A DNA stretch of 64,000 nt from Chrysiogenales bacterium. GTDB taxonomy: Bacteria > Acidobacteriota > Aminicenantia > UBA2199. The stretch lies in contig CAVOXU010000002.1 in NCBI GenBank assembly GCA_963700535.1, positions 88,094 through 152,093 of the forward strand. Reading direction: 5' to 3'. The notes below the pieces were generated by a model, which did no database searches, was not told where the DNA came from, and saw only the letters and a program-made list of their open reading frames with translations. The position numbers and the translations under genes were made by a program. Of this stretch, positions 42,119-63,480 are shown in pieces; position 1 is the stretch's first letter; each line of letters starts with the position of its first letter.

Positions 42119-42745
42119 ATGTTCAAATCCCTGGTTCCGAAAAACGAAATTTTTTATGAACTCTTCGACCAGATCAGCGCCAATACGGTCGAAGGTGTGC
42201 AGACCCTGGTCAAAATGCTCGACGACTGTGAGCATTACAACGAGTACGCTGTCAGCCTGAAGTCGCTGGAGCACCAGACCGACCTTTTGGTGCACAGCGT
42301 CATGTCGCACCTGCACAAGACATTCGTCACGCCCATCGACCGCGAAGACATCCACCAGCTGGCCTCTCGCCTGGACGACATCCTGGACCTGGCCGAAGCC
42401 GCCAGTTCGCGCATCGATCTCTACCGTCCCTGCGCCGTGCCGCGCGAAGCCAAGGAACTGAGCCACGTGCTGCTGGAAAGCGTCAAGCTGGTCAAGGAAA
42501 TGGTCGGCCTGCTGCGCGTACTGAAAAAACCGGCGCGCATCATGGAACTGACCGTGGAGATCAACCGCCTGGAGGACCAGGCCGACTACATCCGCCGCAG
42601 CACCCTGGCCCGTCTTTTCCGCGAGGAAAAGGACCCCTTCGAGCTGATCAAGTGGAAGGATATCCTGGAATACATCGAACGGGCCACCGACCGCTGCGAG
42701 GACGTGGCCGACATCACCGAAGGCATCGTCCTGGAAAATACTTGA
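42119..42745 (+). CDS. DUF47 (PhoU-like) family protein, partnered with Pit
   Basis: 208-aa helical protein immediately upstream of the PiT transporter. Confidence 0.7.
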   Translation: MFKSLVPKNEIFYELFDQISANTVEGVQTLVKMLDDCEHYNEYAVSLKSLEHQTDLLVHSVMSHLHKTFVTPIDREDIHQLASRLDDILDLAEAASSRIDLYRPCAVPREAKELSHVLLESVKLVKEMVGLLRVLKKPARIMELTVEINRLEDQADYIRRSTLARLFREEKDPFELIKWKDILEYIERATDRCEDVADITEGIVLENT

Positions 42746-42758
42746 CCGAATAAGCACC

Positions 42759-43757
42759 ATGATGATCCTGATCGTTTTCATTGTTTTTCTCGCCCTGCTT
42801 TTTGATTTCATCAACGGCATGAACGATGCCGCCAATTCGGTGGCGACCATCGTTTCCACGCGCGTCCTCTCCCCGCGCCAGGCCGTGCTTTGGGCGGCTT
42901 TCTTCAACTTTGTCGCCGCCTTTCTTTTTGGCGTGCACGTGGCCAACACCATCGGCAAAGGGATAATTGATTCGCGAGTCGTTTCCGCCCCCATGATCCT
43001 GGCTACTTTGATCGGTGCCATTGTCTGGTCATATTTGTGTACCCACATGGGATTGCCGATCAGCATCTCGCACGCCCTGGTTGGCGGCCTGGTCGGCGCC
43101 GCCCTGGCCAAAGGCGGCATCAAGGCGCTGGTCGTTTCAGGGCTGTTGAAGATCTCCCTGTTCATCGTCCTGGCGCCGCTGATCGGAATGCTGCTGGGCT
43201 ATATGCTCATGATCCTGGTCATGTGGATCTGCCACAAGCGTGCGCCGCGGACTGTGGACCACTGGTTCCGCCGTCTGCAGCTCTTTTCCGCCGCCCTGTA
43301 CAGCCTCGGCCACGGCACCAACGATGCCCAGAAGACCATGGGGGTCATCGCCATGCTGCTGTACTCCACCGGCCACCTGGGTTCAACTTTTTATGTGCCG
43401 GTGTGGGTGATCCTGAGCTGCCACGCGGCGATCGCCCTGGGCACCTTGAGCGGCGGCTGGAAGGTGATCGAGACCCTGGGCATGAAAGTGACCAAGCTCA
43501 AGCCCGTGCACGGCTTCAGCGCCGAGACCGCCGCGGCGGGATCCATCCTTATGTCTTCATTATTGGGCGTCCCGGTATCCACCACCCATACCATCACCGG
43601 GGCCATCATCGGCGTCGGCGCCACCACCCGCCTGTCGGCCATCCGCTGGGGGCTGGCCTATCGCATAGTCTGGGCCTGGATCCTGACCATCCCGGGATCG
43701 GCCCTGGTCGCGGCCCTTTGCTGGTACGGCATATCGCTGCTGCACCTTCCCGGCTGA
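42759..43757 (+). CDS. pit: Inorganic phosphate transporter, PiT family
   Basis: GMNDAANS and GTNDAQKTMG signature motifs. Confidence 0.85.
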   Translation: MMILIVFIVFLALLFDFINGMNDAANSVATIVSTRVLSPRQAVLWAAFFNFVAAFLFGVHVANTIGKGIIDSRVVSAPMILATLIGAIVWSYLCTHMGLPISISHALVGGLVGAALAKGGIKALVVSGLLKISLFIVLAPLIGMLLGYMLMILVMWICHKRAPRTVDHWFRRLQLFSAALYSLGHGTNDAQKTMGVIAMLLYSTGHLGSTFYVPVWVILSCHAAIALGTLSGGWKVIETLGMKVTKLKPVHGFSAETAAAGSILMSSLLGVPVSTTHTITGAIIGVGATTRLSAIRWGLAYRIVWAWILTIPGSALVAALCWYGISLLHLPG

Positions 43758-43917
43758 GTGGAAGGAAGTATTCATAATTGGAGGATAACGATCCTACGGC
43801 GAACGTATTGCATGCGGCAAGCAAGAGAAACATGGCATACAGGAATCTTTTAGTAACTTGAACAAGCTTATTTTTTTAAAACGGAACTCTACAATTTGAT
43901 CGGCTTCGATTCCGGGG

Positions 43918-43945
43918 TTGACAACACCTGGAAAGTTGGTAAAAT
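43918..43945 (+). promoter_or_regulatory. Sigma-70-like promoter upstream of the pst operon
   Basis: TTGACA, 16-nt spacer, TAAAAT. Confidence 0.45.
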
Positions 43946-44004
43946 GAAACTTAATTAATCTCCAAAACAATTTCAACAATCATTTAAATTGCAAGGAGAA
44001 AAAA

Positions 44005-44887
44005 GTGGCACAAAAAAAATGGATATTTTTTGGCAATAGGCCTCTAGCCTGGCGCTGGGTCTCTGGTTCTCCGGCTGCGGCCGGCAGGGGCAAGAAGGCC
44101 GATTCTCTCCAGATCAAGGGCTCGGACACCATGGTCAACCTGGGCCAGGCCTGGGCCGAAGAGTTCATGAAAGCGAATCCCAAGGTGTCGGTGGCCGTCA
44201 CCGGCGGCGGTTCGGGCACGGGCATCGCCGCCATGCTTTCCAACACATGCGACATCGCCGAACTCTCGCGCGAGCTCAAGCCCGAGGAGATCGCCATGGC
44301 CAAAAAGAAGGGCTTCGAGCCAAAACAGATCGTCGTGGCCCTGGACGGGCTGGCCGTGGTGGTCCATCCCGCCAACCCGCTGTCGCAGCTGACCCAGGAC
44401 CAGTTGGCCGCGATCTTTTCCGGTTCCGTCAGCAATTGGAAAGACGTCGGCGGCAGCGACCTGCCCATCGTGGTCCTGTCGCGCGAGGTCAACTCCGGCA
44501 CCCATGTCTATTTCAAGGAGCACGTGCTGCGCCGCAACCGCAAGGAGAGCCAGGTGGAATTCGCCGCCAATGCCCTGATGCTGCCCAGTTCCCAGGCCAT
44601 CGCCGACGAAGTGGACCAGAATCCCAGGCGCCATCGGCTATTACGGCATGGGCTACATTTCCCCGAAGGAAAAAGCCCTGGCCATCGCCAAGGATGCCGA
44701 TTCTCCATATGTTCAGCCTACCATTGAAAATGTCGTCAGCCAGGCTTATCCCATTTCGCGTCCGCTGCTCATGGTCAGCCGCGGCCAGCCCACGGGACTG
44801 GTGGCCCGCTTTATCGATTTTATACTCAGCCCGGAAGGACAAAAGATCGTGGTCAAGATCGATTTCGTGCCGGTGAAAAGCAATTAA
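44005..44887 (+). CDS. pstS: Phosphate ABC transporter substrate-binding lipoprotein PstS, with about four frame breaks
   Basis: The lipoprotein signal (..LALGLWFSGCGRQGQEG) is spread over three frames in 44010-44110. The core is SLQIKGSDTMVNLGQAWAEEF. Another frame break near 44627 joins ORF 44648..44887. Confidence 0.8.
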
Positions 44888-44893
44888 ACAAAG

Positions 44894-45775
44894 ATGAAAC
44901 CCATTCGGGTCCGCAAGCTGAAGGAATGGCTCATAGAAAGATCCATTTTGCTCAGCGGCATATTTTCCGTTGTTTTTGTGTTGCTGATATTCCTTTTCTT
45001 GCTGCGCGAAGGACTTTCCCTTTTTCGCGGCGAAAGCGTGATCGATTTTCTTTTCGGCAAGAGCTGGTACCCCATCTCCGATCCGCCGCGCTTCGGCATC
45101 CTGCCGCTTATCCTCGGCTCGCTGCTGGTCACTTTGGGAGCGGCCGCCATTTCGGTGCCCATCGGCATCGCCGCCGCGTTGTATATCGCCGAGATCGCTC
45201 CGCGGCGGCTCAAAGAGGTCCTGAAGGCCGGCATTGAACTCCTGGCCGCCATCCCCTCGGTGGTCATCGGCTTCATCGGCATGATCACCCTCGGGCCCTG
45301 GATCAAAAATATTTTCAACATCCCTACCGGGCTGACGGCCCTGACCGGCTCGGTCACCCTGGCCTTCATGGCCATGCCCACCATCGTTTCCATCGCCGAG
45401 GATGCCATCACCGCCGTGCCGCGGCAATACCGCGAAGCGGCCATCGCCATGGGAGCCACCAAGTGGCAGACCACCTGGCGCATCGTGGCCCGCGCCGCCC
45501 GCCCGGGCATGCTGGCCGCGGTCATGCTGGGCATCGGCCGGGTAATCGGCGAGACCATGGCCGTGATGATGGTCACCGGCAATGCCGCCATCATCCCCAC
45601 CAGTTTCCTGCAGCCGGTGCGCACCCTGACCGCGACCATCGCCGCCGAAATGGGCGAGTCGGTGCAGGGAGGGCCTCATTACGCCGCCCTGTTCGCCATC
45701 GGCATCGTGCTCTTTGTCATCACCTTCCTGATCAACGGTGTGGCCGATCTTTACCTGCACCGCTCGCGCCGCTAG
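44894..45775 (+). CDS. pstC: Phosphate ABC transporter permease PstC
   Basis: Six-TM permease with the EAA loop. Confidence 0.85.
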   Translation: MKPIRVRKLKEWLIERSILLSGIFSVVFVLLIFLFLLREGLSLFRGESVIDFLFGKSWYPISDPPRFGILPLILGSLLVTLGAAAISVPIGIAAALYIAEIAPRRLKEVLKAGIELLAAIPSVVIGFIGMITLGPWIKNIFNIPTGLTALTGSVTLAFMAMPTIVSIAEDAITAVPRQYREAAIAMGATKWQTTWRIVARAARPGMLAAVMLGIGRVIGETMAVMMVTGNAAIIPTSFLQPVRTLTATIAAEMGESVQGGPHYAALFAIGIVLFVITFLINGVADLYLHRSRR

Positions 45776-45777
45776 CC

Positions 45778-46624
45778 ATGAACGCGCGCCTGGCCCAGAA
45801 GATCGCTTTTGCGCGTCCTGCTGCTGGCCACCCTGCTGGTGGTGCTGCCGGTGCTGGTCATCCTGCTGATCATCGTGGTCAAAGGGGCCAGCGCCATCAG
45901 CTGGGATTTCCTTTTTTCCATGCCCCGCGACGGCATGACCGCCGGCGGCATTTTTCCGGCCATCCTGGGCACGCTCTACCTGGTGATCGGGGCCATTATC
46001 TTTGCCGTGCCGCTGGGCGTCATGGCCGCCGTTTACCTGGTCGAATATTCCAGCGACAACTGGCTGTCGCGCCTGGTCAAGTTGTCCATCGTCAACCTGG
46101 CCGGCGTGCCGTCGGTGGTCTACGGCCTTTTCGGCCTGGGGATCTTTGTCACCTTCTTCGGTTTCGGCGCCTCGATCCTGTCCGGGTCGCTGACCCTGGG
46201 CATCATGATCCTGCCGGTGATCATCACCTCGTCGCGCGAAGCGCTGGAAAGCGTGCCCCGGCATTTCCGCACCGTAAGCCTGTCGCTGGGAGCCAGCCGC
46301 TGGCAGACCATCCGTCATTCGGTGCTGCCGCACGCCTTGCCGGGAATTTTGACCGGCATGATCCTCGGCCTGGGCCGCGCCGCCGGCGAGACCGCCCCCA
46401 TTCTCTTCACCGTGGCCGCATTTTACCTGCCGCGCCTGCCGCAGTCGATTTTCGATCAGACCATGGCTTTACCCTACCACCTGTACGTCATATCCACTCA
46501 GGTGCCTGGAATAGCCGAGAACGTCCGCTACGGCACGGCGCTGGTACTGCTGTCCCTGGTGCTGTTGCTCAACCTGGCCGCCATCCTGATCCGCTCCCGT
46601 TTCCGCAGGAAGAAAAAATGGTAG
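45778..46624 (+). CDS. pstA: Phosphate ABC transporter permease PstA, with a frameshift near 45812
   Basis: MNARLAQKIAF (frame 1) joins LRVLLLATLLVV... (frame of ORF 45809..46624). Confidence 0.8.
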
Positions 46625-47379
46625 ATCCGGCCGCCAAGTTCTCCATTCGCGCTTTCCATGTCCAATACGGCCAGTTCAGCGCCCTGCGCGACCTGAACCT
46701 GGAAATCATGGCCAACGAAATATTCACCGTCATCGGGCCGGCCAATTCCGGCAAAACCACTTTCCTCAATTCCCTGAATCGTTTGATCGACCTGGTCCCG
46801 GTCAGCCGCTGCAGCGGCGAGATCAAATTGGATGGAGTAGATATCCGCCGCAGTCTGGAAGTCGAAGCCTTGCGCCGCAAGGTCGGCATTGTATTTGCCC
46901 TGCCGCTACCGCTGCCCATATCAATTTTTGAAAATGTGGTCTACGGCCTGCGCATGCAAGGCATACGCGATGCGCGGCGCCTGAATGAAGCGGTAGAGAG
47001 AAGCCTCAGCGAATCGTATCTTTGGGAGGAGGTTAAAGACCGTTTGCGTACGCCGGCCATGAACCTTTCCGGCGGTCAGCAGCAGCGTTTGTGCATGGCC
47101 CGCATCCTGGCCGGCCAACCTGATGTGCTGCTTTTCGATGAACCAACCTCGGGGCTGGATCCGATTTCCACGGCCAGGATCGAGGAGACCCTGTTGATCT
47201 TGAAGGAAAAGTACACCATAGTGCTGGTGACCAACAACATAGCCCAGGCGGCCCGGGTTGGTGACCGCACTGCATTTTTTCTGATGGGGGACATGATCGA
47301 AGTGAGCGACACGGGCAAGATGTTCACCACGCCGGCCGATCAGCGCACCAGCGATTACATAACCGGCAAGTTTGGCTGA
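46618..47379 (+). CDS. pstB: Phosphate ABC transporter ATP-binding protein PstB
   Basis: Walker [25 protein letters not shown], Walker B. Overlaps the pstA stop (ATGGTAG). Confidence 0.9.
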
Positions 47380-47380
47380 C

Positions 47381-48138
47381 ATGAACGAGATCAGTATAGA
47401 AACCCGCGCCCTGGACCTTTTTTACGGCGATTTCCAGGCCCTTACCGGGATCGATCTGCGCATACCCGTCCGCCAGGTGACCGCCCTGATCGGGCCCAGC
47501 GGCTGCGGCAAGAGCACCCTGCTGCGGGTGTTCAACCGCATGAACGACCTGATCGACGGCGTGCGCGTCAAAGGCCAGGTCATTATCGACGGCCAAGACA
47601 TCTTCGCCCCCGGAGCCGACCTGCTCCGCCTGCGCGAAAAGGTGGGCATGGTCTTTCAGCGCCCCAATCCCTTTCCCCTTTCGGTTTATCGAGAACATTG
47701 TATTCGGCCTGGCCGTGCATCGCCTGGCGCGGCGGCAGGATTACGACGGCATAGTCGAACAGGCTTTGCGCAGCGTCCTGCTTTGGGATGACCTCAAGGA
47801 CCGGCTGCACCATTCGGCATTGAAACTGTCGCTGGAACAGCAGCAGCGCCTGTGCATCGCCAGGGTACTGCCTTTGAAACCGCAGATACTGCTCATGGAC
47901 GAACCCTGTTCAGCGTTGGATCCCGTGGCCACGCTGCATATTGAGGACCTGATGCAGAGACTGAAAAAAGAGTATACCATCGTCATTGTCACCCACAACA
48001 TGCAGCAGGCGGCCCGGGCCTCGGACCGCACCGGCTTCCTCTACCTTGGCAAGCTCATCGAGTTCGCTGAAACCGAAAAATATTCACCAAGCCGGCTCAG
48101 ACCATGACCGAAAACTACATCAGCGGCCGTTTCGGCTG
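47381..48138 (+). CDS. pstB: Second PstB paralog, with frameshifts near 47688 and 48073
   Basis: [24 protein letters not shown]. The C-terminus [21 protein letters not shown] is recovered by a 1-nt shift in an A-run. Confidence 0.8.
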
Positions 48139-48155
48139 AAACCAGGAGAAAGAAT

Positions 48156-48805
48156 ATGGCAAGAGAACATTTTCAAAACATGTTGCGCGGGCTGGAACAG
48201 GAACTGGTGGCAATGGGGGAGATGGTCATCACTGCCATCGACCGCTCTATCCAGGCGCTTAAGAACGTCGACAAGGCCGAAGCCGAACGCATCATCGCCG
48301 ACGATGCCCTGATCAACCAGCGGCGCTGGGACATCGAAAATCAATGCATCCAGCTTTTTGCCACCCAGCAGCCCGTGGCCGGTGACCTGCGTGAGATCGT
48401 GTGCCCTCATCGATGATCACCAACCTGGAGCGCATGGCCGACCACGCCAAGGGCATCGCCACCATCGTGGTCAGGCACGATCAGAAGCCGCTGCTCAAGC
48501 CGCTGATCGATATCCCGCGCATGGCTGACAAGGCCCGCGAAATGATCCAGAAAAGCCTGACCGCCTTCATCACCCAGGATGTGGAAGCGGCCGCTGCCAT
48601 CATTGAAATGGACAACGAAGTGGACGCTTTATACGATCAGATCTTCCGCGAGCTTCTGACCTACATGATGGAGGATCCCAAGACCATTACCCGCGCCGTC
48701 TACCTGATCTGGGTAAGCCACAACCTGGAACGCATCGCCGACCGCGTGACCAACATCTGCGAACGGATCATCTTCATGGTCACCGGCGAGATCCAATCGG
48801 ATTAA
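48156..48805 (+). CDS. phoU: Phosphate signalling regulator PhoU, with a frameshift near 48400
   Basis: Two PhoU repeats. ORFs 48156..48416 and 48401..48805 are contiguous. Confidence 0.8.
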
Positions 48806-48899
48806 ACCGCAAAGAAAACTGACCAAGTGATTTTCCTGTCAAAATAATCTGCGGCGATTCCGATTCAATGAAAAAAATATTTTTTATTTTTTATTTCTA

Positions 48900-48928
48900 T
48901 TGACACGTGTTTAAAAACAAACTATATT
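48900..48928 (+). promoter_or_regulatory. Sigma-70-like promoter of the kamA operon
   Basis: TTGACA, 17-nt spacer, TATATT, followed by a GGGAGG Shine-Dalgarno and a TTG start. Confidence 0.45.
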
Positions 48929-48956
48929 CTTAATTGAAAAGTGGGAGGCAATAAAA

Positions 48957-50282
48957 TTGAAAAAAGCCAATCAGGTGATGGCCATGAAGGAAGCTGAACT
49001 TCCCAGTGAGGAGGCTGAACCTCCAAGCAGGGCGCTGCTGGAGGAAAGCAACAACCTCGCCCCGTCGTTGCTCTTTCCCGAGTTAATACAATTCCCCAAT
49101 TCCAAACCCGACAAAACAGTTCTGAAGATAGGAGCTCGTTCACTGCAGTTCCTGAGAAAATATTTTCCTTTAGCGACAAAGGATGACTGGAATAATTGGG
49201 AATGGCAGCTGCGCAACAGCATCACCAGCTTGAAAGCACTGCAGCAATTTCTGCAGCTGTCCGATGATGAGGTGCAAGCCATGACCGTGCAGAGCGGCAG
49301 CCTGCCCCTGCGCGTCACCCCCTATTATGCCAGCCTGCTCGATCCACTTGACTCCATGCAGCCGCTGCGCCGCAGTGTCGTGCCGGTAACCGCCGAGCAC
49401 CTGATCTCCTGCGGTGAAGCCGCCGACCCGCTGGGTGAGGACTCCCACAGCCGCGTCCCCGGCCTTGTGCATCGCTATCCCGACCGGGTACTTTTGCTGG
49501 TCACCGGTTTCTGTTCGACCTATTGCCGTTATTGCACCCGCTCGCGCCTGGTGGGCGACCAGAACAAGCGCCATCTCAACCACGAACAATGGGACCGGGC
49601 CCTTTCCTACATCGAACTGAATCCTGCCGTGCGCGATGTCCTGCTCTCCGGCGGTGACCCGCTGACCTTGCCCGATGAAAGCCTTGAATACCTGCTGACC
49701 CGTTTGAGCCGCATCCCCCACGTGGAATTCGTCCGCATCGGCACCAAGGTGCCTGTGACCATGCCGCAGCGCATCACCCATTCGCTGGTCAATATATTGA
49801 AACGTTTCCGTCCCCTGTGGATGAGCATCCATTTCACCCACCCTGACGAGATCACTCCGGAAAGCATTCAGGCTTGCGAGCGGCTTGCTGATGCCGGCAT
49901 CCCCTTGGGCAGTCAGACCGTGCTGCTGAAAGACATCAACGATTCGCTGCCGGTCATGAAAAAATTGATGCATGAACTGCTCAAGATCAGGGTCCGTCCA
50001 TATTATATGTACCAGTGCGATCCCATCGTCGGATCTTCACATTTCCGCACCCCGGTGGAAAAAGGCCTGGAGATAATCGAAGGCCTGCGCGGCCACACCA
50101 GCGGCTACGCCGTTCCCCATTACGTTATCGATGCCCCGAACGGCGGCGGCAAGATCCCGCTGCTTCCCGATTATTACCAGGGCCGGGCCGACGGCAACGT
50201 ATTGCTGAGAAACTACCAACAAAAAATATACCGCTACCCCGATCAGAAGAGCGAAGGATCGGCGCCGGGAGAGGGCTTGTAA
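48957..50282 (+). CDS. kamA: L-lysine 2,3-aminomutase (radical SAM/PLP, KamA family)
   Basis: CSTYCRYCTR radical SAM cluster. Strong collinearity with clostridial KamA. Both lysine-specifying Asp residues are present (YQCDP, VIDAPNGGGK). Confidence 0.85.
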   Translation: MKKANQVMAMKEAELPSEEAEPPSRALLEESNNLAPSLLFPELIQFPNSKPDKTVLKIGARSLQFLRKYFPLATKDDWNNWEWQLRNSITSLKALQQFLQLSDDEVQAMTVQSGSLPLRVTPYYASLLDPLDSMQPLRRSVVPVTAEHLISCGEAADPLGEDSHSRVPGLVHRYPDRVLLLVTGFCSTYCRYCTRSRLVGDQNKRHLNHEQWDRALSYIELNPAVRDVLLSGGDPLTLPDESLEYLLTRLSRIPHVEFVRIGTKVPVTMPQRITHSLVNILKRFRPLWMSIHFTHPDEITPESIQACERLADAGIPLGSQTVLLKDINDSLPVMKKLMHELLKIRVRPYYMYQCDPIVGSSHFRTPVEKGLEIIEGLRGHTSGYAVPHYVIDAPNGGGKIPLLPDYYQGRADGNVLLRNYQQKIYRYPDQKSEGSAPGEGL

Positions 50283-50366
50283 AAGCCGGTGCCCGTCTGA
50301 AAAACCGCTTGCGTATTTTTATCAGGTGGAATAAAATCACCATGAAATCCAAACGCAGAGGAACCC

Positions 50367-51345
50367 ATGAACATCGGTTTAACCTATGATCTGAGACAGG
50401 ATTACCTGGATGCAGGATACAGCGAAGAACAAACCGCTGAGTTCGACAGTCCCGCCACCATTGCCGCCATTGACAAAGCGCTTATCGCCATGGGGCACAA
50501 GACCATGCGCATCGGCAATGTGAAAAGCCTGGTTCAGCGGCTGGCCGCCGGCGAGCGCTGGGATATGGTCTTCAACATCTGCGAAGGCATGTTCGGGCTG
50601 GGACGCGAGGCCCAGGTGCCGGCCCTGCTCGATGCCTACCAGATCCCCTATACCTTTTCCGGCCCCCTGGTGCTGGCCCTTACCCTGGACAAGGCCCTGA
50701 CCAAGCGTGTGGTCCGTTCCCTGGGCGTGGCCACCCCCGATTTCGCCGTGGTTGCGGCCAAGGAGGATATCGCCGCCGTTGATCTGCCCTTTCCCCTTTT
50801 TGCCAAGCCCCTGGCCGAAGGCACGGGATTGGGCATCGATGCCAGGTCCAAGATAGATTCCCGCCGGCAGTTGACATGCCGTCTGTTGCGAATTACTGGA
50901 AAAATTCAAGCAGCCGGTGCTGGTGGAGACCTATCTGCCCGGTCGGGAGTTCACCGTCGGCATTGTCGGCAGCGGCACTGCGGCCGAGGCCGTCGGCGTG
51001 ATGGAAGTTTTTTTGAAGCCCGAGGCCGAAGCCAATGCCTATTCATATGTCAACAAGGAGAACAGCGAGGAATTGGTCCAGTACGCGCTGGCGCCCGAGG
51101 CCGAGGCCTCAGCTTGCCGGGATGTGGCTTTGCGGACCTGGCGCGGCCTGGGTTGCCTTGATGCCGGCCGCGTCGACTTGAAAATGGACAGGAACGGTGC
51201 CGTTAATTTCATAGAGGTCAATCCCCTGGCCGGCTTGCATCCCGAGCACTCCGACCTGCCGATCATCTGCAGCCTGGTGGGCATCCCCTTCCAGGCGCTG
51301 ATGGAGAGGATCATGGCTTCCGCCGGCCGCAGGACGCGCCCATGA
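50367..51345 (+). CDS. ATP-grasp ligase, D-Ala-D-Ala-ligase-like, with a frameshift near 50875
   Basis: Ddl-like N-terminal and central domains. The C-terminal ATP-grasp block (LVETYLPGREFTVGIV...FIEVNPLAG) is in ORF 50917..51345. Confidence 0.7.
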
Positions 51346-52350
51346 AAGGAAAAAACGCGGTCATCCTGCACAGCCAGGTCGAGGCAGATTCGCCCAAGGA
51401 CGAACAGGATGTGCTGGTCCAGGCCGAGCGAGGTTTGCAAATCCCTGGCCGAATTGGGCTATCAACCGCTTGCCGTACCCTTTTCCCTGGATATTGAAAA
51501 AAATATCCGCACCCTGAAAAAAATGGATCCGCTCTTTGTCTTCAACCTGGTGGAGACGGTGGAAGGCAACGGCCAGCTGATCCACCTGGCTCCGGCGCTG
51601 CTCGATCACCTGGGCCTGCCCTACACAGGCAACAGCCAGGAAGCGATTTTTGTAACCTCCAACAAGGCCCTGTCCAAGAAGCTTTTCTCTGCGGCCGGGG
51701 TGGCTTCCCCGCCCTGGCTGGCTGTTGGAAATCCCCGGGATGCCGCTGCGCTGGGAGCGGGGAGGTACCTGCTGAAATCGGTCTGGGAGCATGCCAGCAA
51801 CTGGTTCGACGACAGTTCCCTTGTCCAGGTCGACGACGGCGCGGAATTGGGCGCGCTGCTGGAGAAGAAGAACCGCGGCGGCCGCGGCCGCTTCTATGCC
51901 GAAAGTTACATCGATGGGCGTGAGTTCAACCTGGCGCTGCTGACCGGTGAATTTTTACCGGCAGCCGAGATCCAGTTCATTGAATTTCCTGACGACAAAT
52001 TGCGCATCGTCGATTTCCGTGCCAAATGGGAAGAGTCGTCGTTTGAATACACCCATACGCCGCGCTCCTTTGATTTCCCGGCCGCCGATCAACCGCTTCT
52101 TGCCGAGTTGCGGACCATCGCCGGCCGCTGCTGGGATTTTTTCAACCTGCGCGGTTACGCCCGGGTCGATTTCCGCGTGGACGAAAACAACCGTCCCTGG
52201 GTGCTGGAGATCAATACCAATCCCTGCCTCTCTCCGGATGGAGGTTTCCATGCCGCCGCTGAACGGAGCGGTCTGTCGTTCACCCAAACAGTGGCAAGGA
52301 TAGTCAATGATTGCCTGTCCGGCCAAGGAATAGAATCTTTGCGCGAATGA
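51342..52350 (+). CDS. Second ATP-grasp ligase, Ddl-like, with a frameshift near 51430
   Basis: Start overlaps the upstream stop (ATGA). Motifs ESYIDGREFNLALL and VLEINTNPCLSP. Confidence 0.7.
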
Positions 52351-52361
52351 TGGAGGAATCC

Positions 52362-52856
52362 ATGAATAAGTCCGAACCGTTGGTTTTTCGCGAAGATGTT
52401 CTGCCCGGCGATCCCGCCGCGGTCAGAGGAATCGTAGAGTCAACGGGATTTTTCTACGACCATGAGATCGCTGTGGCGGTGGAACTGGTGGAAGAGCGGC
52501 TGCAAAGGGGAATGGAGAGCGGCTACCTTTTCCTGTTCGCCGCGCGGGGTGATCGTACGGTCGCTTACAGTTGTTTCGGTGAGATCGCCTGCACCCAAGG
52601 CAGTTACGACCTTTACTGGATTGCCGTGCATGACGATTGCCGCAACCAGGGCATCGGCAAAATCCTGCTCGAAAAGACCGAAGCGCTGATCAGCGCCCGC
52701 AAGGGCCGCGCCATATGGGTGGAAACCTCGGGCCAGGAAAAATACCTGCCGACGCAAAAATTCTACCTGCGTTTCGGCTACAGGCAAGAGGCGGTGCTCA
52801 AGGATTTTTACGGTGCGAACGATGACAAGATAATCTTTGTCAAACGGCTGGTCTGA
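52362..52856 (+). CDS. GNAT family N-acetyltransferase
   Basis: Acetyl-CoA-binding motif RNQGIGKILL. GGAGG Shine-Dalgarno. Confidence 0.75.
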   Translation: MNKSEPLVFREDVLPGDPAAVRGIVESTGFFYDHEIAVAVELVEERLQRGMESGYLFLFAARGDRTVAYSCFGEIACTQGSYDLYWIAVHDDCRNQGIGKILLEKTEALISARKGRAIWVETSGQEKYLPTQKFYLRFGYRQEAVLKDFYGANDDKIIFVKRLV

Positions 52857-52858
52857 CC

Positions 52859-53928
52859 ATGGTTGAAAAAATAAAAAAAAGATCGCTTAAAAGCGGGCTG
52901 CCTCCGGGGACACTGATGCATATCAGCACGAAGAAGGCCGTGGAGAGCCGCATCCGCATCCTGGATTACGATGAGAGCTTCGCTGCGTGAAAAAAAACAG
53001 GCCGTCTTCGAAGAGTGCCTGCCTTTCTGCGACAGCGCTTCGGTGACCTGGATCGATATTGAGGGGCTCCAGGACGTCGGCCTGCTGGAACGCCTGGGCA
53101 ATGGTTACGGCCTGCACCCCCTGATCCTCGAGGATATCCTTAACACCGACCAGCGCCCCAAGTTCGATGACATGGATGGATATATCTATGTGGTCCTTAA
53201 AATGCTGGATTACGACCCCGACACTGCCGGATATCGTTTCCGAACAGGTCAGCATCGTTTTCGGCCGGAATTTCGTGATCTCGATCCAGGAGGGACGCGA
53301 AGGCGATCCCTTCGAGCCCCTGCGCGAGCGTATCCGCAGCGGCAAGGGGCGCATCCGCAAGCTGGGTCCCGACTACCTGGCCTATTCCCTGCTCGACGCA
53401 ATTATCGACCATTATTTCCTCATCCTGGAAAAATTCGCCGAAAGCATCGAGATGCTCGAGGAAAACCTGGTCAGCGATCCCGGGCCGGAAACCCTGCACC
53501 GCATCCACCACCTGAAGCGGGAAATGATCTTTTTGCGCAAGTCGGCCTGGCCCCTGCGCGAAGTCATATACGGCCTGGAAAAGAGCGATTCCGACCTGAT
53601 CCGCCCGGAAACCAAGATATTCCTCCGCGATATATACGACCATGCCGTGCATATCATCGACAGCATCGAAACCTACCGCGAGATGCTCTCCAGCATGCTG
53701 GACATCTACCTTTCCTCGGTGAGCAACCGCATGAACCAGGTGATGAAGGTCCTGACCGTGATCGCCACCATTTTCATGCCCCTCACCTTCCTGGCCGGCA
53801 TCTACGGCATGAACTTCAAATACATGCCCGAGACCGGCTGGCGCTGGGGCTACCCGCTGGTGCTGCTCATCATGCTGGGCGTGGGCGGGCTGATGTTCTA
53901 TTTTTTCAAAAAGAAAAACTGGCTGTAG
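52859..53928 (+). CDS. corA: Magnesium/cobalt transporter CorA, with two frameshifts near 52985 and 53225
   Basis: YGMNF motif and two C-terminal TM helices. The N-terminal blocks lie in other frames (ORFs 52971.. and 53167..). Confidence 0.8.
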
Positions 53929-53946
53929 TAACGATACATCGCCCAT

Positions 53947-54110
53947 GGACATCGTCTGCGTGAAGCCTGAGTTAATTTAGCGATCATTCATGAATTCGTA
54001 GTGTGATAGCGAAGAATTTTATTGTAATTTCATATTTATGCTTTTTTTCATCACGCTTCATATCTCACGCGTCACGCCAGTTCGCCTGCCGTCAACTCGT
54101 TCCCTATTGA
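53947..54110. repeat. Intergenic inverted-arm element, locus F (heptamer cgtgaNN / NNtcacg units)
   Basis: Left arm gacatcgtctgcgtgaagcctgag. Right arm catcacgcttcatatctcacgcgtcacgcc. The interior carries fragments resembling loci A and B (gtgatagcg, gaattcgtag). Confidence 0.5.
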
Positions 54111-54286
54111 CCGACACATTTTTTTGTGGTATGAATATTCCCAATGTTACGTAATTCAGGTTTCTTGTCGTCGCCCGCCTTTGCCCGGCACTACGGTTGC
54201 TGGTGGGCGGCCCCGTCCGCCTGAAAATCTATCCATCCATCCTTTTTTTTATTTCCTGAAAATTAAAAAATCCCAAGGAGAAAAAC

Positions 54287-55597
54287 ATGGAAAGATTTTC
54301 ATCGAGAAAAAAAGAACATCTGCCGACCCATTTCTATAACATCAAGGCCGACCTGGCCGAGCAGCCCAGGCCGCCCCTGGACCCGCGCAGCGGCCAGCCC
54401 CTCGATCCAAGCGCTTTGCAGGCGATCTTCCCGCGCGCTTTCATTGATCAGGAGATCAGCCGCGAGCGTTTTCTGCCGATCCCGGCGGCGGTGCTGGAGG
54501 CATACGCCCAGTTTCGCCCCACACCGCTCGTTTATGCCGCGGAGCTGAAAAAACAGCTGCGCACACCGGCCCATATTTTTTACAAATACGAAGGAGCCAG
54601 CCCCACCGGCAGCCACAAGAGCAACACGGCATTGATGCAGGCCTATCTTGCCGCCGGCGAAGGAGTGCGGGAGCTGGTGACCGAGACCGGCGCCGGCCAG
54701 TGGGGCTCAGCCCTGGCTTACGCCGGCTCGCGCTTCGGCATTTCCACGCGGGTGTTCATGGTGCGGGCCAGCTACCGCCAGAAGCCCGGGCGGCGCACGA
54801 TCATGAACCTGTTCGGGGCGCAGGTCGAGGAAAGTCCCGGTCCCAATACCGAATCCGGGCGCGGATATTTTTCAAAAAATCCCGATCATCCGGGCAGCCT
54901 GGGCATAGCCATTTCCGAAGCCGTGGAAACTGTCCTGGGCAACCCGGCCAGCAAATATGCCCTGGGTTCGGTGCTGGACAGCGTGCTGATGCACCAGACC
55001 GTGATCGGGCAGGAAGCGGAAAAACAGTTAAAGGAAATCGGCATGGAGCCGGACACGGTCATCGGCTGCGTGGGCGGCGGCTCCAATTTCGCCGGCATCA
55101 GTTTTCCTTTTATAAGAAAGAACCTGGCTGAGGGAAAAAAAATCGACTTCATTGCCGTGGAGCCCGAGGTTTGCCCTACACTGACCGACGGGGAATTGCG
55201 CTATGATCACGGCGACAGTGCCGGACTGACGCCGCTGTTGTACATGTATACTTTGGGGCGGGATTTCATTCCGCCGCCCATTCACGCCGGCGGCCTGCGC
55301 TACCACGGCATGGCGCCCCTGGTCAGCCACCTGGCCGCTGCGGGGCAGGTGCGGGCTCGCTCCTACTCCCAGTCCGCCGTGTTCGCCGCCGCCAAAACCT
55401 TTTATGTCAGCGAAGGAGTGCTGCCGGCACCCGAATCGGCCCATGCCATAGCTGCAGTTATCGAGGCAGCCGAGCAGGCCGCGCGCACAGGAGAGGAAAA
55501 AGTCATACTGTTCAATCTTTCCGGGCACGGTTTTTTTGATATCGGCGCCTATGAGTTGAATGGCGGCGCCTCCAGCGCAACCGCAGTGCCGTCCTGA
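54287..55597 (+). CDS. TrpB-like PLP enzyme (tryptophan synthase beta chain type 2, TrpB2)
   Basis: 436 aa. PLP lysine context (ASPTGSHKSN) and GGGSNFAG. N-terminus PTHFYNI...PLDP is typical of TrpB2. Confidence 0.75.
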   Translation: MERFSSRKKEHLPTHFYNIKADLAEQPRPPLDPRSGQPLDPSALQAIFPRAFIDQEISRERFLPIPAAVLEAYAQFRPTPLVYAAELKKQLRTPAHIFYKYEGASPTGSHKSNTALMQAYLAAGEGVRELVTETGAGQWGSALAYAGSRFGISTRVFMVRASYRQKPGRRTIMNLFGAQVEESPGPNTESGRGYFSKNPDHPGSLGIAISEAVETVLGNPASKYALGSVLDSVLMHQTVIGQEAEKQLKEIGMEPDTVIGCVGGGSNFAGISFPFIRKNLAEGKKIDFIAVEPEVCPTLTDGELRYDHGDSAGLTPLLYMYTLGRDFIPPPIHAGGLRYHGMAPLVSHLAAAGQVRARSYSQSAVFAAAKTFYVSEGVLPAPESAHAIAAVIEAAEQAARTGEEKVILFNLSGHGFFDIGAYELNGGASSATAVPS

Positions 55598-55654
55598 GAT
55601 AGCGGCTGGGAATTATCCCCGGATGTGTTAAAATGAAAACTGAGGTATGCGGCC

Positions 55655-57280
55655 ATGTTCGACGTCATCCTGGTTTTGCCTTATCCCTGCGCCGATCACC
55701 CTTCCTTCCCCGAGGGGATCCTGAAAAGGGCCCTGGAAGCGGCCGGGTTCAGTGTCGGCGTGATCGAAACGCCATTCTGGCAGGACAAGGAATCATTTGC
55801 AGCCCTGGGCCGGCCGCGGCTTTTTTTCGCCGTGGTTTCGGGCCCGCTCGATTCAGTGGTGTTGAACTATACCGCCAGCCGCCGCCGGCGCCGCGAAGAC
55901 CTTTATCAGTTCGAAGGCGCAGCCTTTTTCAGCGGCCGCCCTCCCGACATCAAGTTCAAGATCCGCCCCGACCGCACCCTTGCTGTATTCTCCAACCGGC
56001 TGCGCGAAGTATTCCGCGAGGTGCCTGTGGTCATCGGCGGCGTCGAGGCGACGCAGCGTTGCTTTGCCCATTATGATTTCCAGGAAAACAAGGTCCGGCG
56101 CTCCATACTGCTCGATTCCCGCGCCGATATCCTGGTCAGCGGCAACGGCGAAAAGCAGGTCGTGACCATCGCCCGCCTGCTGCAGCAGGGCGTGCCGGCG
56201 GCGCAGATAGACATTCCCGGCACGGCCAGGATCTGCTCCGGGCCGCCTTTGGCAAAAAACTGCCTGGAGCTGCCCGCCTGCGAAGAAGTGCAGGCCGATC
56301 CCGCCCAACTGCTGCAGAGCCAATTGCGCATCAGCCAGGCCGGCGGCAAGCTCAGCCTGGCCCAGAAGCACGCCAACCGCTGGGTGGTGCAAAACCCGGC
56401 CGAGATTTACGATAGTGACGACCTTGACCATATTTATGGACTCGGCTATAGCCGCCGCCACCTGAAGGGCCCGGCCTATTCCCCGGCCCTGCGCATGAAC
56501 CTTTTTTCGGTCACCGCGCAGCGGGGCTGCGCCGGCGGCTGCGCCTTCTGCTCGATCACTTCAAGCGAAGGGCGGCGTGTGGTTTCGCGTTCCGCGGATT
56601 CGATTTTCAGGGAGATACGCTCCCTGGCCGCCCATCCCGAATGGCGCGGCGTGGTCTCCGACATCGGCGGCGCCACTGCCGAAATGTACGGCAGCGATTG
56701 CCTGGTCGCGTCCTGTCAGCGTGATTCCTGCCTTCAGCCCCGGCAATGCCGCCATTTCAATCCCGGCGAACCGTATCGGCAGCTGCTGCGCCAGGGGCGG
56801 GCCCTGCCCGGAGTCAAAAAGATCATGCTGGGCTCCGGGCTGCGCCATGACCTGTTGCTGCAAAATCCCGAGCTGCTGGAAGAGATTCTGCGCGAACACT
56901 GCGGACGTTTCCTGCGTGTTGCCCCTGAGCATACCGAGGACGAAGTTCTGGATCTGATGGGCAAGCCGCGCTTCGCGGTTTTCGAGGAATTCGTGGCTCT
57001 TTTCAAGCGCGTGAACCGCGGCTTGCAGCGCCCGGTCGAGCTGGCGCCTTACCTGATCGTCGGCCATCCCGGCGAGAGCAGGGTCATGGTTCAAGCCATG
57101 AAGGAGAAAATGCGCGATCTGGGACTGAAAACCAGCGATGTGCAGATCTTCACTCCCGCACCCGGCACCCTGTCCACTGCCATGTATCACTCGGGCCTGT
57201 CGCCTTCGGGAAAGGAATTAGTTGTGGAAAAAGACATCCGCGCCCTGCAGCAACGTAAAAATCTGCTGGCCCAAGAATAA
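55655..57280 (+). CDS. YgiQ/UPF0313 family radical SAM protein
   Basis: N-terminal DHPSF motif. CAGGCAFCS cluster. Confidence 0.7.
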   Translation: MFDVILVLPYPCADHPSFPEGILKRALEAAGFSVGVIETPFWQDKESFAALGRPRLFFAVVSGPLDSVVLNYTASRRRRREDLYQFEGAAFFSGRPPDIKFKIRPDRTLAVFSNRLREVFREVPVVIGGVEATQRCFAHYDFQENKVRRSILLDSRADILVSGNGEKQVVTIARLLQQGVPAAQIDIPGTARICSGPPLAKNCLELPACEEVQADPAQLLQSQLRISQAGGKLSLAQKHANRWVVQNPAEIYDSDDLDHIYGLGYSRRHLKGPAYSPALRMNLFSVTAQRGCAGGCAFCSITSSEGRRVVSRSADSIFREIRSLAAHPEWRGVVSDIGGATAEMYGSDCLVASCQRDSCLQPRQCRHFNPGEPYRQLLRQGRALPGVKKIMLGSGLRHDLLLQNPELLEEILREHCGRFLRVAPEHTEDEVLDLMGKPRFAVFEEFVALFKRVNRGLQRPVELAPYLIVGHPGESRVMVQAMKEKMRDLGLKTSDVQIFTPAPGTLSTAMYHSGLSPSGKELVVEKDIRALQQRKNLLAQE

Positions 57281-57371
57281 AGGCGACATGGATAAAAAAT
57301 AGCATGTGCTGGTTTTTGACTTTGTCGTTTAAACGTGATTAAATATGCCCTCCCCAGGGAGGGGATGCGCT

Positions 57372-57644
57372 ATGATAAATAAACATGGTAATACAGCTGA
57401 AGTGATCAGCCGTTTAAACAAGATCGAAGGTCACATCAGGGGTGTCATTGGCATGGTGGAAACAGAAAAGGCCTGCGACGAGATCCTTCTTCAGTTTTCC
57501 GCGATCCAGGCCGCAATCAAAAAAGCCGGTCAAATCATATTGGTTGACCATTTTGAGCATTGTATTCTGGACAGGATCAATGACGAGGATGTCAAAGGCG
57601 ATGTGAAGTTGTTCCAAACAGCATTGTCGCGATTGCTGAAATGA
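57372..57644 (+). CDS. CsoR/RcnR family metal-sensing transcriptional repressor
   Basis: ~90 aa. Conserved Cys...His...Cys (ACDE, HFEHC) typical of Cu(I)-sensing CsoR. Confidence 0.7.
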   Translation: MINKHGNTAEVISRLNKIEGHIRGVIGMVETEKACDEILLQFSAIQAAIKKAGQIILVDHFEHCILDRINDEDVKGDVKLFQTALSRLLK

Positions 57645-57678
57645 TCGTGCCTGCCTACAATCAGGAAAAGAGGTAAAA

Positions 57679-59181
57679 ATGAAAAATCGCTTGTTGCTTT
57701 TAATGATGATCCTTACTCTGACTATTCAATGCCGGAAGTCCGCCGCTCATGATGACGAACATGATGCTGAGGACCTCAAACCCAAGATTCAGTTCACAGC
57801 GTACAGTGAACATCACGAGCTTTATGCAGAGTCAGATATTTTTGTCGAGGGGAAGCCCGCATCATTCCTGGCCCATTTCACAAAACTGTCAGACTTCAAG
57901 CCTTTGTCGCGGGCAAAGATATCTCTTGCGCTGAAGGTCAATGATCATACAGTACTCGCCGAGCAAGCCGGACCCATCCGTCCCGGAATTTACTTGTTCT
58001 CGATTGTCCCCAAATTTTCCGGCAAAGGACAATTGCTGGTCAATATTGGCGAAGATGACCGTCTCGATCAAATAATCCTGAAAACTGTCACTATTTACAA
58101 AAACGAAGCGGATGCCCTGAATAAGCATCGAGAACCACCGGCCAATGCCCAGGCGGTGCTGTTTACAAAAGAAAAATCCTGGAAAGTGGAATTTGCCACC
58201 GAGTTGCCGCTGGCAGGAGCGTTCGGACAGATCATCAAAACCACGGCGCAAATACAGTCGGCCCAGGGAGATGAAGCGATCATTACAGCCAAAGCCAATG
58301 GCGTGATCGTGTTTGACGGTGATGTGCTTGAGGGAAAAAGTCTTACATCCGGGCAAAGCCTGTTCATGATTTCCGCCGGGGGAATTACCGAAAACAATTT
58401 GGCGGTTCGCTTTTCGGAAGCGCAAAACAATTTCCGGAGAGCCAAAGCCGAATACGAAAGATCAAAAGATCTGGCCCGGGATAAAATTGTCGCGGAGAAG
58501 GATTTTCTGAAGATTAAAAATGAATACGATAATGCCAAGCTGATATTTGACAACCTGAACAGGAATTTCAGTGGCGGAGGACAAAGGGTGGTCACTCCTT
58601 TCGCCGGTTTCATCAAGCAAATATTCGTAAATAACGGTCAGTTTGTGAATGCCGGACAGCCAATTGTCACTGTCTCTCAGAACCGCACGTTTTTGCTCCG
58701 GGCCGATGTTCAGCAAAAATATGCACCGGTGTTGGCTTCTATCGTATCAGCAACGATCCGTACGCTTCACGACAATCAAACCTATTCGCTTGAACAGCTG
58801 AACGGAAAAATTCTCTCATATGGCAGGAATGTAAACAATGATAATTATCTGATCCCCATCAGTATTCAGATCGAAAACAAGGGCGGGCTTCTTTCCGGGG
58901 GCTTTGTTGAATTGCATCTCAAGACCATGATCAATGCCAATAAGCTGAGTATCCCCAATACCTCTATATTGGAAGAACAGGGGAAATATTTTGTTTATGT
59001 GCAGGTCAACCCTGAAAATTTCGAGAAACGTGAAGTGACGCTTGGGGCAAGCGATGGACTCAGAACGGAAATCATAACCGGGATCGACGAAAATGACCGC
59101 TTTGTCAGTAAAGGAGCGATCTGGGTGAAGTTAGCGCAGGCATCGGGAGCCCTGGATGCTCATTCCGGCCATGTTCATTAA
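57679..59181 (+). CDS. Efflux RND periplasmic adaptor (CusB/CzcB-like), with His-rich termini
   Basis: HlyD-family core. N-terminal HDDEHDAED...EHHE, C-terminal HSGHVH, plus an extra ~150-aa N-terminal domain. Confidence 0.75.
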   Translation: MKNRLLLLMMILTLTIQCRKSAAHDDEHDAEDLKPKIQFTAYSEHHELYAESDIFVEGKPASFLAHFTKLSDFKPLSRAKISLALKVNDHTVLAEQAGPIRPGIYLFSIVPKFSGKGQLLVNIGEDDRLDQIILKTVTIYKNEADALNKHREPPANAQAVLFTKEKSWKVEFATELPLAGAFGQIIKTTAQIQSAQGDEAIITAKANGVIVFDGDVLEGKSLTSGQSLFMISAGGITENNLAVRFSEAQNNFRRAKAEYERSKDLARDKIVAEKDFLKIKNEYDNAKLIFDNLNRNFSGGGQRVVTPFAGFIKQIFVNNGQFVNAGQPIVTVSQNRTFLLRADVQQKYAPVLASIVSATIRTLHDNQTYSLEQLNGKILSYGRNVNNDNYLIPISIQIENKGGLLSGGFVELHLKTMINANKLSIPNTSILEEQGKYFVYVQVNPENFEKREVTLGASDGLRTEIITGIDENDRFVSKGAIWVKLAQASGALDAHSGHVH

Positions 59182-59195
59182 GCAGAACAAGAAAC

Positions 59196-62100: not shown

Positions 62101-62297
62101 TGACTGCCTTCACATCGGCATTGGCATTGATTCCCCTGGCCATGAAGGGAAACTTATCGGGAAATGAAATTCAAAGTCCGATGGCTAAAGTGATTTTAGG
62201 TGGTTTACTCACTTCCACCTTGCTGAATATTTATTTCATGCCTGTGGTGTACAGTATTCTCAACAACCGCGGCATCTTAAAACCAAGGAACAAATGA
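59196..62297 (+). CDS. Heavy-metal efflux RND pump, CusA/CzcA family
   Basis: 1033 aa, 12 TM helices, HME-RND family sequence. Confidence 0.85.
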   Translation: MLNSIIKFSLNNKFLVILCTVAVMVVGFYTAANMDVDVFPDLTAPTVVVMTDAHGMAAEEVERLVTFPIETAVNGATDVRRVRSSSAQGYSFVWVEFDWGTDIFKARQIVSEKLISVTSQMPLGIGLPALAPQSSVMGEMFFIGIQAEHTDLMALRTIAEWNVKPLLLATSGVSQVTIIGGEYKQYQVLADPQKMKYYGVSLRELAEICKGISQNSTGGSVRQFGNEYAVRGIARTADLEALGNSYIKSRNGQAILIRDVAEIRIAGAIKMGYASENAKPAIIISVSKQPNTNTLDLTRRIEANLGVLQRTLPPDVKLDTKIFRQADFIETSIGNVKNALFEGSIFVVIILFIFLGGFRTTLISLIAMPLSLLGSIIVLKQLGLNINTMSLGGMAIAIGSLVDDAIIDVENVYKRLKQNLQLPRAERRSIFTVVYEASKEIRASILNATLIIIVAFLPLFFLSGMEGRMLKPLGIAFVVSLFISLVVAMTLTPVLCRMFLSNEVFLKKTEKEKWFIGRLSYYYKNSLAWTLRHKWVVVLSALGLFVLSLAAFLNMGRSFLPEFNEGSLTLSVVCKPGTSLEESNRLGNLVETELLSIPEVASTARRTGRGELDEHSQTVNSAEIDVNFSLKGRSRDIFMADVRGRLAGIPGIASTVGQPLGHRIDHMLSGTRANIAIKIFGNDLHRLFQLGNDIKNSLADVAGLVDVAVDQQIEIPQIQIRAHRGLLAAYGITIQQFNEFVDTAFAGEKVSDIYEGQMRFDLVLRLNKDYTESIEGIRAALIETHDGKVVPLEHVADIVSVAGPSTISRENVQRKIVVSANVSGRDLRSVVSDIQQIINEKITLPKGYRIEYGGQFESETRASQTLLLTSLLSIMIIFMLLFLEFKNFKLAAVILLNLPLAMIGGVFAVYFTAGSLSIPAIIGFITLFGIATRNGILLISSYQQMQWQGFQVQETVINGSLDRLNPILMTAFTSALALIPLAMKGNLSGNEIQSPMAKVILGGLLTSTLLNIYFMPVVYSILNNRGILKPRNK

Positions 62298-63472: not shown

Positions 63473-63480
63473 TACGATCC

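Follow-up and report, generated by a model that had tools for sequence, protein, structure and literature searches.

Organization of the locus

We analyzed a 64,000-nucleotide stretch of contig CAVOXU010000002.1 (positions 88,094 to 152,093, forward strand) from assembly GCA_963700535.1, a Chrysiogenales bacterium of the Aminicenantia lineage. This whole stretch is referred to as the window, and coordinates are window positions unless they follow the name of another locus. The window contains a putative operon that starts with kamA, encoding a predicted lysine 2,3-aminomutase. It is followed by two genes for ATP-grasp ligases of the D-alanine--D-alanine ligase (Ddl) type (ligase 1 and ligase 2), a gene for a GNAT N-acetyltransferase and corA. 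All five genes are on the plus strand according to the open reading frame (ORF) listing and scans with Pfam and NCBIfam, which agrees with the gene content given in a first-pass annotation of the sequence. Related loci from other genomes are numbered with the prefix L and protein records with the prefix P. The features of the operon are listed below.

48900..48928, + strand: sigma-70-type promoter, TTGACA-17-TATATT (11/12 consensus positions, AT-rich upstream element)
48957..50282, + strand: kamA, intact 441-aa ORF with a TTG start and a GGGAGG ribosome-binding site
49008..49028, + strand: N-terminal motif E-E-A-E-P-P-S of KamA (aa 18-24)
50367..51345, + strand: ATP-grasp ligase 1, Ddl fold, ~325 aa, with a 1-bp insertion at ~50876
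51342..52333, + strand: ATP-grasp ligase 2, Ddl fold, ~329 aa, with 1-bp insertions at ~51428 and ~52323
52362..52856, + strand: GNAT N-acetyltransferase, 164 aa, RimI-like (Pfam Acetyltransf_1/7/10)
52859..53928, + strand: corA Mg2+/Co2+ channel (TIGR00383 equivalog), with 1-bp insertions at ~52978 and ~53226

The promoter is predicted to be strong and to drive the operon. Both the promoter and the TTG start of kamA are kept in the relatives L001, L002, L004, L007, L008 and L018. The first-pass annotation had described the genes as joined by ATGA-overlapping starts, which was found to be true of one junction. The overlap between the ligase 1 stop and the ligase 2 start (51342-51345) is genuine and is kept in L001-L003. 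No overlap exists between kamA and ligase 1, which are separated by a gap of 84 nt. The insertion at 52323 creates a false ATGA overlap between ligase 2 and GNAT at 52347; ligase 2 stops at the TAG at 52331-52333, and the ATG of the GNAT gene, set by alignment to homologs, is at 52362. corA starts 2 nt past the GNAT stop.

Frameshifts in the window copy

Neither ligase gene is unbroken in the window. Their intact homologs align across two or three frames (for ligase 1, 50367-50873 and then 50878-51333), and corA is spread over three. A DNA alignment to the intact relatives L004 and L006, which are 93.5% identical, placed five 1-bp insertions at ~50876, ~51428, ~52323, ~52978 and ~53226. All five are outside long homopolymers. 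The intact L004 genes lie at 6617-10487 of that locus, on contig JAHIKI010000065.1 of GCA_018897435.1. Frameshifts were also found in pstS, pstB2 and phoU upstream, giving a total of ~8 single-base frameshifts in 9 kb (44005-53928). No frameshift was found in kamA, GNAT, pstC, pstB1 or ygiQ, and kamA has no indels relative to L004.

The number of single-base frameshifts within 9 kb makes assembly error likely. The public protein collection includes the truncated 313-aa ligase 2 ORF (P0241), and the errors therefore sit in the deposited record. The repaired frames contain no stop codons. After repair, ligase 2 shares 94% identity with P0361, an intact protein of 327 aa encoded by a sister metagenome-assembled genome, and intact ligase 1 homologs (P0121, P0122) were found at 96% identity. 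In our view, the frameshifts most likely arose as consensus errors of the assembly and not through gene decay.

The alternative is that the operon is a decaying pseudogene cluster in this genome and that the frameshifts are real. The insertions do strike the ligases and corA, and the same truncated ORF stands in the public collection. However, pstS, pstB and phoU in the same 9 kb carry comparable frameshifts, every change is a single base, the coding sequence is otherwise undecayed with repaired frames 94-96% identical to intact homologs, and KamA and GNAT are intact. Decay is thus an unlikely explanation.

KamA has the residues expected of a lysine 2,3-aminomutase

KamA contains the Pfam domains Radical_SAM and LAM_C and matches the lysine 2,3-aminomutase of C. 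subterminale (2A5H) with E=2e-132. Its CSTYCRYC segment aligns to C125/C129/C132 of 2A5H, so that the CxxxCxxC radical SAM motif is kept. R134, D293, D330 and K337 of 2A5H are also identical in KamA (segments YQCD, VIDAP, GGGK and CTRSR). We take Lys337 to bind pyridoxal phosphate (PLP) and Arg134 to bind the carboxylate. Asp293 and Asp330 are, on the same assumption, the residues that bind the epsilon-amine and separate lysine mutases from glutamate and arginine mutases. The radical SAM cluster and both lysine-specifying Asp residues named in the first-pass annotation are therefore present. KamA passes the NCBIfam model of the KamA subfamily (TIGR00238; 358 against a cutoff of 199). We infer that KamA is a predicted lysine 2,3-aminomutase with a complete set of catalytic and lysine-binding residues. 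Glutamate and arginine 2,3-aminomutases were considered and are unlikely, as both Asp residues are present and the models for those enzymes score lower.

One difference from the clostridial enzyme concerns a metal site. Cys268 of 2A5H is replaced by Ser in KamA, and the C-terminal tail of KamA has no Cys. Cys268 and a C-terminal Cys triad presumably form the inter-subunit Zn site of the tetrameric clostridial enzyme.

KamA also carries an N-terminal extension of ~70 aa that is variable across phyla and lies outside all KamA-family models. Its sole conserved element, ~20 residues from the N-terminus, is acidic-acidic-x-E-P-P-[G/S]. EPP[GSA] was found in 104/120 close KamA homologs, and most of the remaining homologs have near variants. 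Two loci without the KamA core, L060 (nt 5659) and L047 (nt 4420), have a small ORF with the motif directly 5' of the ligase genes; these ORFs may be deletion remnants. The EPP[GS] motif may serve the ligases as a docking arm or as a carrier site.

The two ligases are divergent members of the Ddl branch

Both ligase genes carry the Pfam ATP-grasp domain Dala_Dala_lig_C, and the two proteins are translationally coupled paralogs with ~25% identity. PDB sequence matches were to Ddl structures only (E=8e-30 for one ligase and 9e-17 for the other). The AlphaFold2 models, with a mean predicted local distance difference test score (pLDDT) of 86.7 for ligase 1 and 88.8 for ligase 2, gave Ddl as the best match in both cases (template modelling score, TM, 0.77-0.81 for ligase 1). 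Across both ligases, Foldseek matches to Ddl had TM 0.76-0.81 at 22-30% identity. Like DdlA, DdlB and VanA, the ligases have a three-domain ATP-grasp fold and the common residues for ATP, Mg2+ and the acyl-phosphate.

We compared individual residues by alignment to E. coli DdlB, whose sequence was verified against 2DLN. K97, K144, E180, E187, K215, R255, D257, E270 and N272 (DdlB numbering) are kept in both ligases. The D-Ala triad of DdlB, E15/S150/Y216, is lost in both. The loop motif with E15 is absent, S150 is replaced by T in ligase 1 and A in ligase 2, and Y216 is replaced by E/K in ligase 1 and W in ligase 2. L282 is an invariant Asp in ligase 1 and Gly in ligase 2; G276 is Cys in ligase 2, and H63 is also replaced. 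A cationic nucleophile, for example (beta-)lysine, would fit well with Asp282 of ligase 1.

Family models gave the same picture. Intact homologs of the ligases scored 157.1 and 98.5 bits against the Ddl cutoff of 243 (NF002378), scores for the Van-type models were far under their cutoffs, and the RimK/LysX and graspetide ligase models reached 16-20 bits at most. The ligases are not cell-wall Ddl orthologs because the D-Ala triad is lost and every Ddl family cutoff is missed; unlike DdlA, DdlB and VanA, they also lack a cell-wall gene neighbourhood. The first-pass annotation had named cell-wall orthology as a finding that would count against it. Judged from residues and folds, the ligases look like active ATP-grasp enzymes with new substrate pockets. 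Public records label both families 'D-alanine--D-alanine ligase' (P0121-P0360), which is a systematic mis-annotation.

The acetyltransferase and a deacetylase variant

The best NCBIfam match of the GNAT protein was RimI, with 48 bits against a cutoff of 86.4. It scored 22.5 bits with the AblB model TIGR03827, for which the cutoff is 205.1. By these scores, the protein is RimI-like and clearly not of the AblB type.

In 13/60 loci, the GNAT gene was found ~1.8 kb further 3', preceded by or fused to a PF00850 deacetylase. In several of the 13, GNAT is the C-terminal domain of a ~750-aa protein with the order GNAT-like, PF00850 (histone deacetylase (HDAC)/acetylpolyamine-amidohydrolase type) and GNAT. 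This variant points to an amine of the lysine- or polyamine-like type that is reversibly acetylated. By analogy only, it would support acetylation of the side-chain amine of a beta-lysine moiety.

The GNAT-PF00850-GNAT protein is found at L046:7025-9289 and also in L019, L034, L039, L055, L063 and L070. Some loci of the PF00850 variant have a Cys-rich ORF of ~170 aa between kamA and ligase 1.

The operon is conserved across more than ten phyla

We scanned one genome per species with the ligase 2 alignment and analyzed the best 80 of at least 596 matches. Gene presence and order in these 80 loci were mapped by tblastn, and denominators are the informative loci. Neighbouring gene families were clustered from same-strand ORFs, since antisense ORFs in GC-rich DNA pollute longest-ORF calls made on both strands.

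The core genes were co-oriented in 80/80 loci. kamA was found upstream in 60/64, ligase 1 in 58/64 and GNAT downstream in 52/60 informative loci, and all four genes were present in 37 of the 51 loci with full flanks. The neighbourhood conservation that the first-pass annotation had called for is thus observed. KamA homologs at 84%, 73% and 61% identity are all encoded in loci with the order kamA-ligase-ligase-GNAT and with unrelated flanks. This order is kept across >10 phyla in the best 80 loci. Carriers include Aminicenantes, Syntrophales/Smithella/Syntrophus, many Desulfobacterales, Planctomycetota and Spirochaetia, as well as Krumholzibacteriia, Kiritimatiellia, Lentisphaerae, Verrucomicrobiia, Bacteroidales and others. 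The arrangement is not due to chance, because the same order recurs in dozens of unrelated genomes. An exhaustive phmmer search with ligase 2 returned 878 representative clusters (50% identity) at E<=1e-30. The operon is present in hundreds of mostly anaerobic bacterial species.

kamA, ligase 1, ligase 2 and GNAT form the core, because no other gene family was common to >15 loci. The best 150 representatives included 11 ligase1-ligase2 and 23 ligase2-GNAT fusion proteins, as confirmed by domain scans and pairwise alignment. The fusions argue strongly for a shared pathway of the three proteins, which probably work as a complex. corA was found in Aminicenantes-type loci only (L001, L004, L006-L008 and L018) and was absent from L002, L003 and the other phyla; it is a lineage-specific member of the operon.

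A proposed pathway from lysine to an acetylated beta-lysine product

With moderate confidence, we propose that this is a self-contained biosynthetic operon yielding an N-acetylated beta-lysine peptide or conjugate that serves as a bulk cytoplasmic solute or organic-cation buffer. The gene identities, the conserved residues, the conserved operon and the fusions are shown by the data; from them we infer the ligase substrates, the order of the steps, the acetylation site and the physiological role as follows. KamA, a radical SAM/PLP enzyme, would turn free L-lysine into beta-lysine. Each ligase would then make one amide bond through an acyl-phosphate intermediate, and in this way one or two additional amino or acid partners would be joined to beta-lysine. 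Finally, GNAT would N-acetylate a free amine, likely the lysine-type side-chain amine, as AblB does. The product would be made in bulk from the strong promoter. A LysA equivalog is located 3' of the cluster in 7 Smithella-type loci, in agreement with lysine being the input.

The first-pass annotation had already taken the genes for a beta-lysine pathway to which two ligases and a GNAT are added, with an undescribed product. That part stands as the best reading; the inclusion of corA in the operon applies to the Aminicenantes-type lineage only. The N-acetylated di- or tripeptide and the compatible-solute role suggested there are tentative proposals.

Several points weigh against the proposal. 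The best equivalog match of KamA, AblA (TIGR03820), is missed with a score of 484.5 against 525.4, because ~50-55 C-terminal positions are absent and the N-terminal extension is present. The alignment of KamA stops at 2A5H residue 367, and the C-terminal domain of characterised tetrameric lysine 2,3-aminomutases is absent. For these two reasons, the stereochemistry and even the activity of KamA are only predicted. The conserved EPP[GS] motif is not explained by a simple soluble pathway, and the substrates of the ligases are not readable from sequence. The four-gene set is not obligatory, because GNAT is absent from 8/60 informative loci and ligase 1 from a few, and some loci keep kamA and both ligases without GNAT. 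Carriers come mostly from non-saline anaerobic habitats, with genomes mostly from freshwater, peat, groundwater and digester samples; this weighs on the compatible-solute role and disfavours a purely osmotic one. A full-text literature search returned no paper describing the cluster or tying its genes to a metabolite. The first-pass annotation had likewise supposed that no such product was described. The cluster is built from familiar enzyme classes.

If the proposal is true, an undescribed compound derived from beta-lysine is produced in hundreds of anaerobic species. Many of the carriers (Aminicenantes, Syntrophales/Smithella, Desulfobacterales, Planctomycetota and Spirochaetia) are key organisms in digesters, sediments and peat. 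Knowing the product would add a metabolite, extend the Ddl branch of the ATP-grasp enzymes by two new substrate specificities and correct the naming of both ligases as D-Ala-D-Ala ligases. It would also provide a handle on stress or ion homeostasis in organisms that are difficult to grow.

Comparison with known systems and alternative explanations

We compared the operon with pathways that use related enzymes. Like the AblA/AblB system of methanogens and some bacteria, it combines a KamA-family aminomutase and a GNAT in one operon, with beta-lysine as the likely intermediate. Unlike that system, it has two ATP-grasp genes between kamA and GNAT, its GNAT is not AblB, and its KamA lacks the C-terminal domain and has the N-terminal extension bearing EPP[GS].

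A second point of comparison is the synthesis of N-acetylglutaminylglutamine amide (NAGGN), where Ngg does both acetylation and ligation (PMC8070244). The likeness is that N-acetylation is coupled to an ATP-dependent non-ribosomal peptide bond, and relatives of the window operon have ligase2-GNAT fusions (23/150). The same acetylation-plus-ligation logic is followed in mammals by the synthesis of N-acetylaspartate and N-acetylaspartylglutamate (NAT8L with RIMKLA/B). Unlike the fused relatives, the window has separate but adjacent ligase and GNAT genes. The window and the conserved neighbourhood contain no AsnO-type amidotransferase, and no Ngg-type model was among the NCBIfam matches. The window ligases are two in number and Ddl-type, and the input would be beta-lysine from a radical SAM mutase, not glutamine. 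The operon belongs to neither the AblA/AblB nor the NAGGN system, because GNAT fails the AblB model, AsnO is missing and the ligases are Ddl-type.

The best of the alternatives, to which we give a small but real chance, is a pathway for a polyamine-like cation. In this case the ligases would build beta-lysine into a cationic oligomer or conjugate, which would buffer anions such as nucleic acids, ATP and polyphosphate. Its charge would be toggled by GNAT and, in some genomes, by an HDAC-type deacetylase, like SpeG/SSAT and acetylpolyamine amidohydrolase. The GNAT-HDAC(PF00850)-GNAT fusions or inserted HDAC genes in 13/60 loci are consistent with this, as is the invariant Asp at position 282 of ligase 1, which places an acidic side chain in the second-substrate pocket. 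Phosphate or Mg2+ transport genes also adjoin the cluster in independent layouts: PhoU_div+PiT and pstSCAB-phoU 5' of the cluster and corA 3' of it in Aminicenantes, a divergent phoBR-pst in L002 (1-7944), and PhoU_div+PiT directly 3' of the cluster in 12-13 Syntrophales/Smithella loci (L010, L014, L016, L028, L031 and others, ~7200-9400), seven of which have the LysA equivalog next. These layouts may hint at a link to phosphate/cation homeostasis or may be plain synteny. However, transporter genes adjoin the cluster in two or three lineages only, nothing convincing or conserved in the way of a Pho box was found 5' of kamA, the likeness of GNAT to the polyamine acetyltransferase PaiA is weak (E=5e-4), and nothing shows oligomerisation.

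A wider version is doubtful in our view. It would combine an undescribed class of beta-lysine metabolites, widespread in anaerobes from many phyla, the EPP[GS] element as a docking arm for the fused or coupled ligases or as a LysW-like covalent carrier, and a GNAT/HDAC charge switch tied to phosphate/Mg2+ homeostasis.

It is unlikely that the operon encodes a carrier-tethered or peptide-modifying system, with the EPP[GS] element of KamA as a docking site or a LysW/LysX-like covalent site, or a microviridin-type pathway for a peptide made by the ribosome and modified after translation. Microviridin clusters have two ATP-grasp ligases (MdnB and MdnC) and a GNAT (MdnD) in one operon. The window operon mirrors this mdnB/mdnC/mdnD set; moreover, the motif is the only conserved part of the KamA extension in close homologs, and in L060 and L047 a motif ORF stands directly 5' of the ligases without the KamA core. 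Unlike microviridin and other graspetide clusters, the operon contains kamA and has no precursor-peptide gene, and no conserved small-ORF family adjoins it. Neither a protease nor an exporter was found in the core cluster. The ligases are Ddl-type and not RimK-like (RimK, LysX and graspetide models at <=16-20 bits). In KamA, the residues for binding the two amino groups of free lysine are retained, and the two small ORFs may be deletion remnants as noted above.

That N-epsilon-acetyl-beta-lysine is simply made as an AblA/AblB-type osmolyte, with the ATP-grasp genes unrelated to it, is decidedly unlikely. AblA is the top equivalog for KamA, a GNAT lies within the operon, and ablAB pairs have earlier been suggested for bacteria such as Pelobacter (PMC3543383). 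This reading is contradicted by the score of GNAT with the AblB model, by the position of the ligases, always between kamA and GNAT and in many genomes fused to each other or to GNAT, and by the loci that keep kamA and both ligases without GNAT.

Very improbable is beta-lysylation of elongation factor P (EF-P), or of another translation factor, with an ATP-grasp ligase in place of EpmA. In the EpmB/EpmA system, an ATP-dependent ligase likewise receives its beta-lysine from an aminomutase of the KamA family without the C-terminal domain. EpmB is a relative of KamA, and in L060 an EF-P gene lies immediately 5' of the ligase 2-GNAT pair. The window has no EpmA (a LysRS paralog), however. The EpmB equivalog scored 257.9 against a cutoff of 369.3, the lowest of the KamA subfamilies; efp was adjacent in 1/86 loci only (L060), and lysylation needs neither two ligases nor an acetyltransferase. 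In L060, the EF-P gene (L060:4546-5106) is followed by ligase 2 and GNAT in a locus without kamA and ligase 1.

Finally, we regard it as equally improbable that the ligases are cell-wall D-Ala-D-Ala ligase paralogs or that kamA is a lysine-fermentation gene: the public names and the closest fold point to Ddl, but E15/S150/Y216 and L282 are replaced, the Ddl, VanA and similar models are far under their cutoffs, no mur/fts family is conserved nearby (in 83 loci no non-core family was common to >15), and kamDE, kdd and kce are not adjacent in the window or in L001-L004. As the first-pass annotation had noted for the fermentation genes, the neighbours in the window are of other kinds (pst/phoU, corA, PALP, YgiQ and metal-efflux genes).

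Genomic surroundings of the operon

PhoU_div, PiT, pstSCAB(B) and phoU are located 5' of kamA in the window (42119-48805). A PALP enzyme, a YgiQ-family radical SAM protein, a CsoR-like repressor and an RND efflux set are located 3' of corA. No Rfam riboswitch or other element was detected in the window, including Na+ and c-di-AMP types, or in 12 related loci. A PADLOC scan for anti-phage defence returned zero matches.

The 5' leader of kamA was found to be conserved in Syntrophus-type loci (L014:3165-3376, L016:3460-3624, L021:3549-3713 and L050:3330-3517). Its end is formed by a terminator-like hairpin, AAAAGAGAGG-N6-CCTCTCTTTTT, immediately in front of the ribosome-binding site. This leader matches no Rfam family, with a permissive scan returning noise only, and it may be an attenuator or a riboswitch.

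The YgiQ-family gene (55655-57280; Radical_SAM_N and Radical_SAM) lies just 3' of the cluster in Aminicenantes-type relatives. It persists as a neighbour even where corA is replaced (L001, L002 and L004), and none was seen in other phyla. Relative to L004, the window has an insertion of ~1.7 kb (53929-55657) that carries a TrpB-like PALP enzyme (54287-55597). A second insertion of ~6 kb (57300-63480) carries a CsoR-like metal repressor and an HlyD/RND efflux set (57345-63472).

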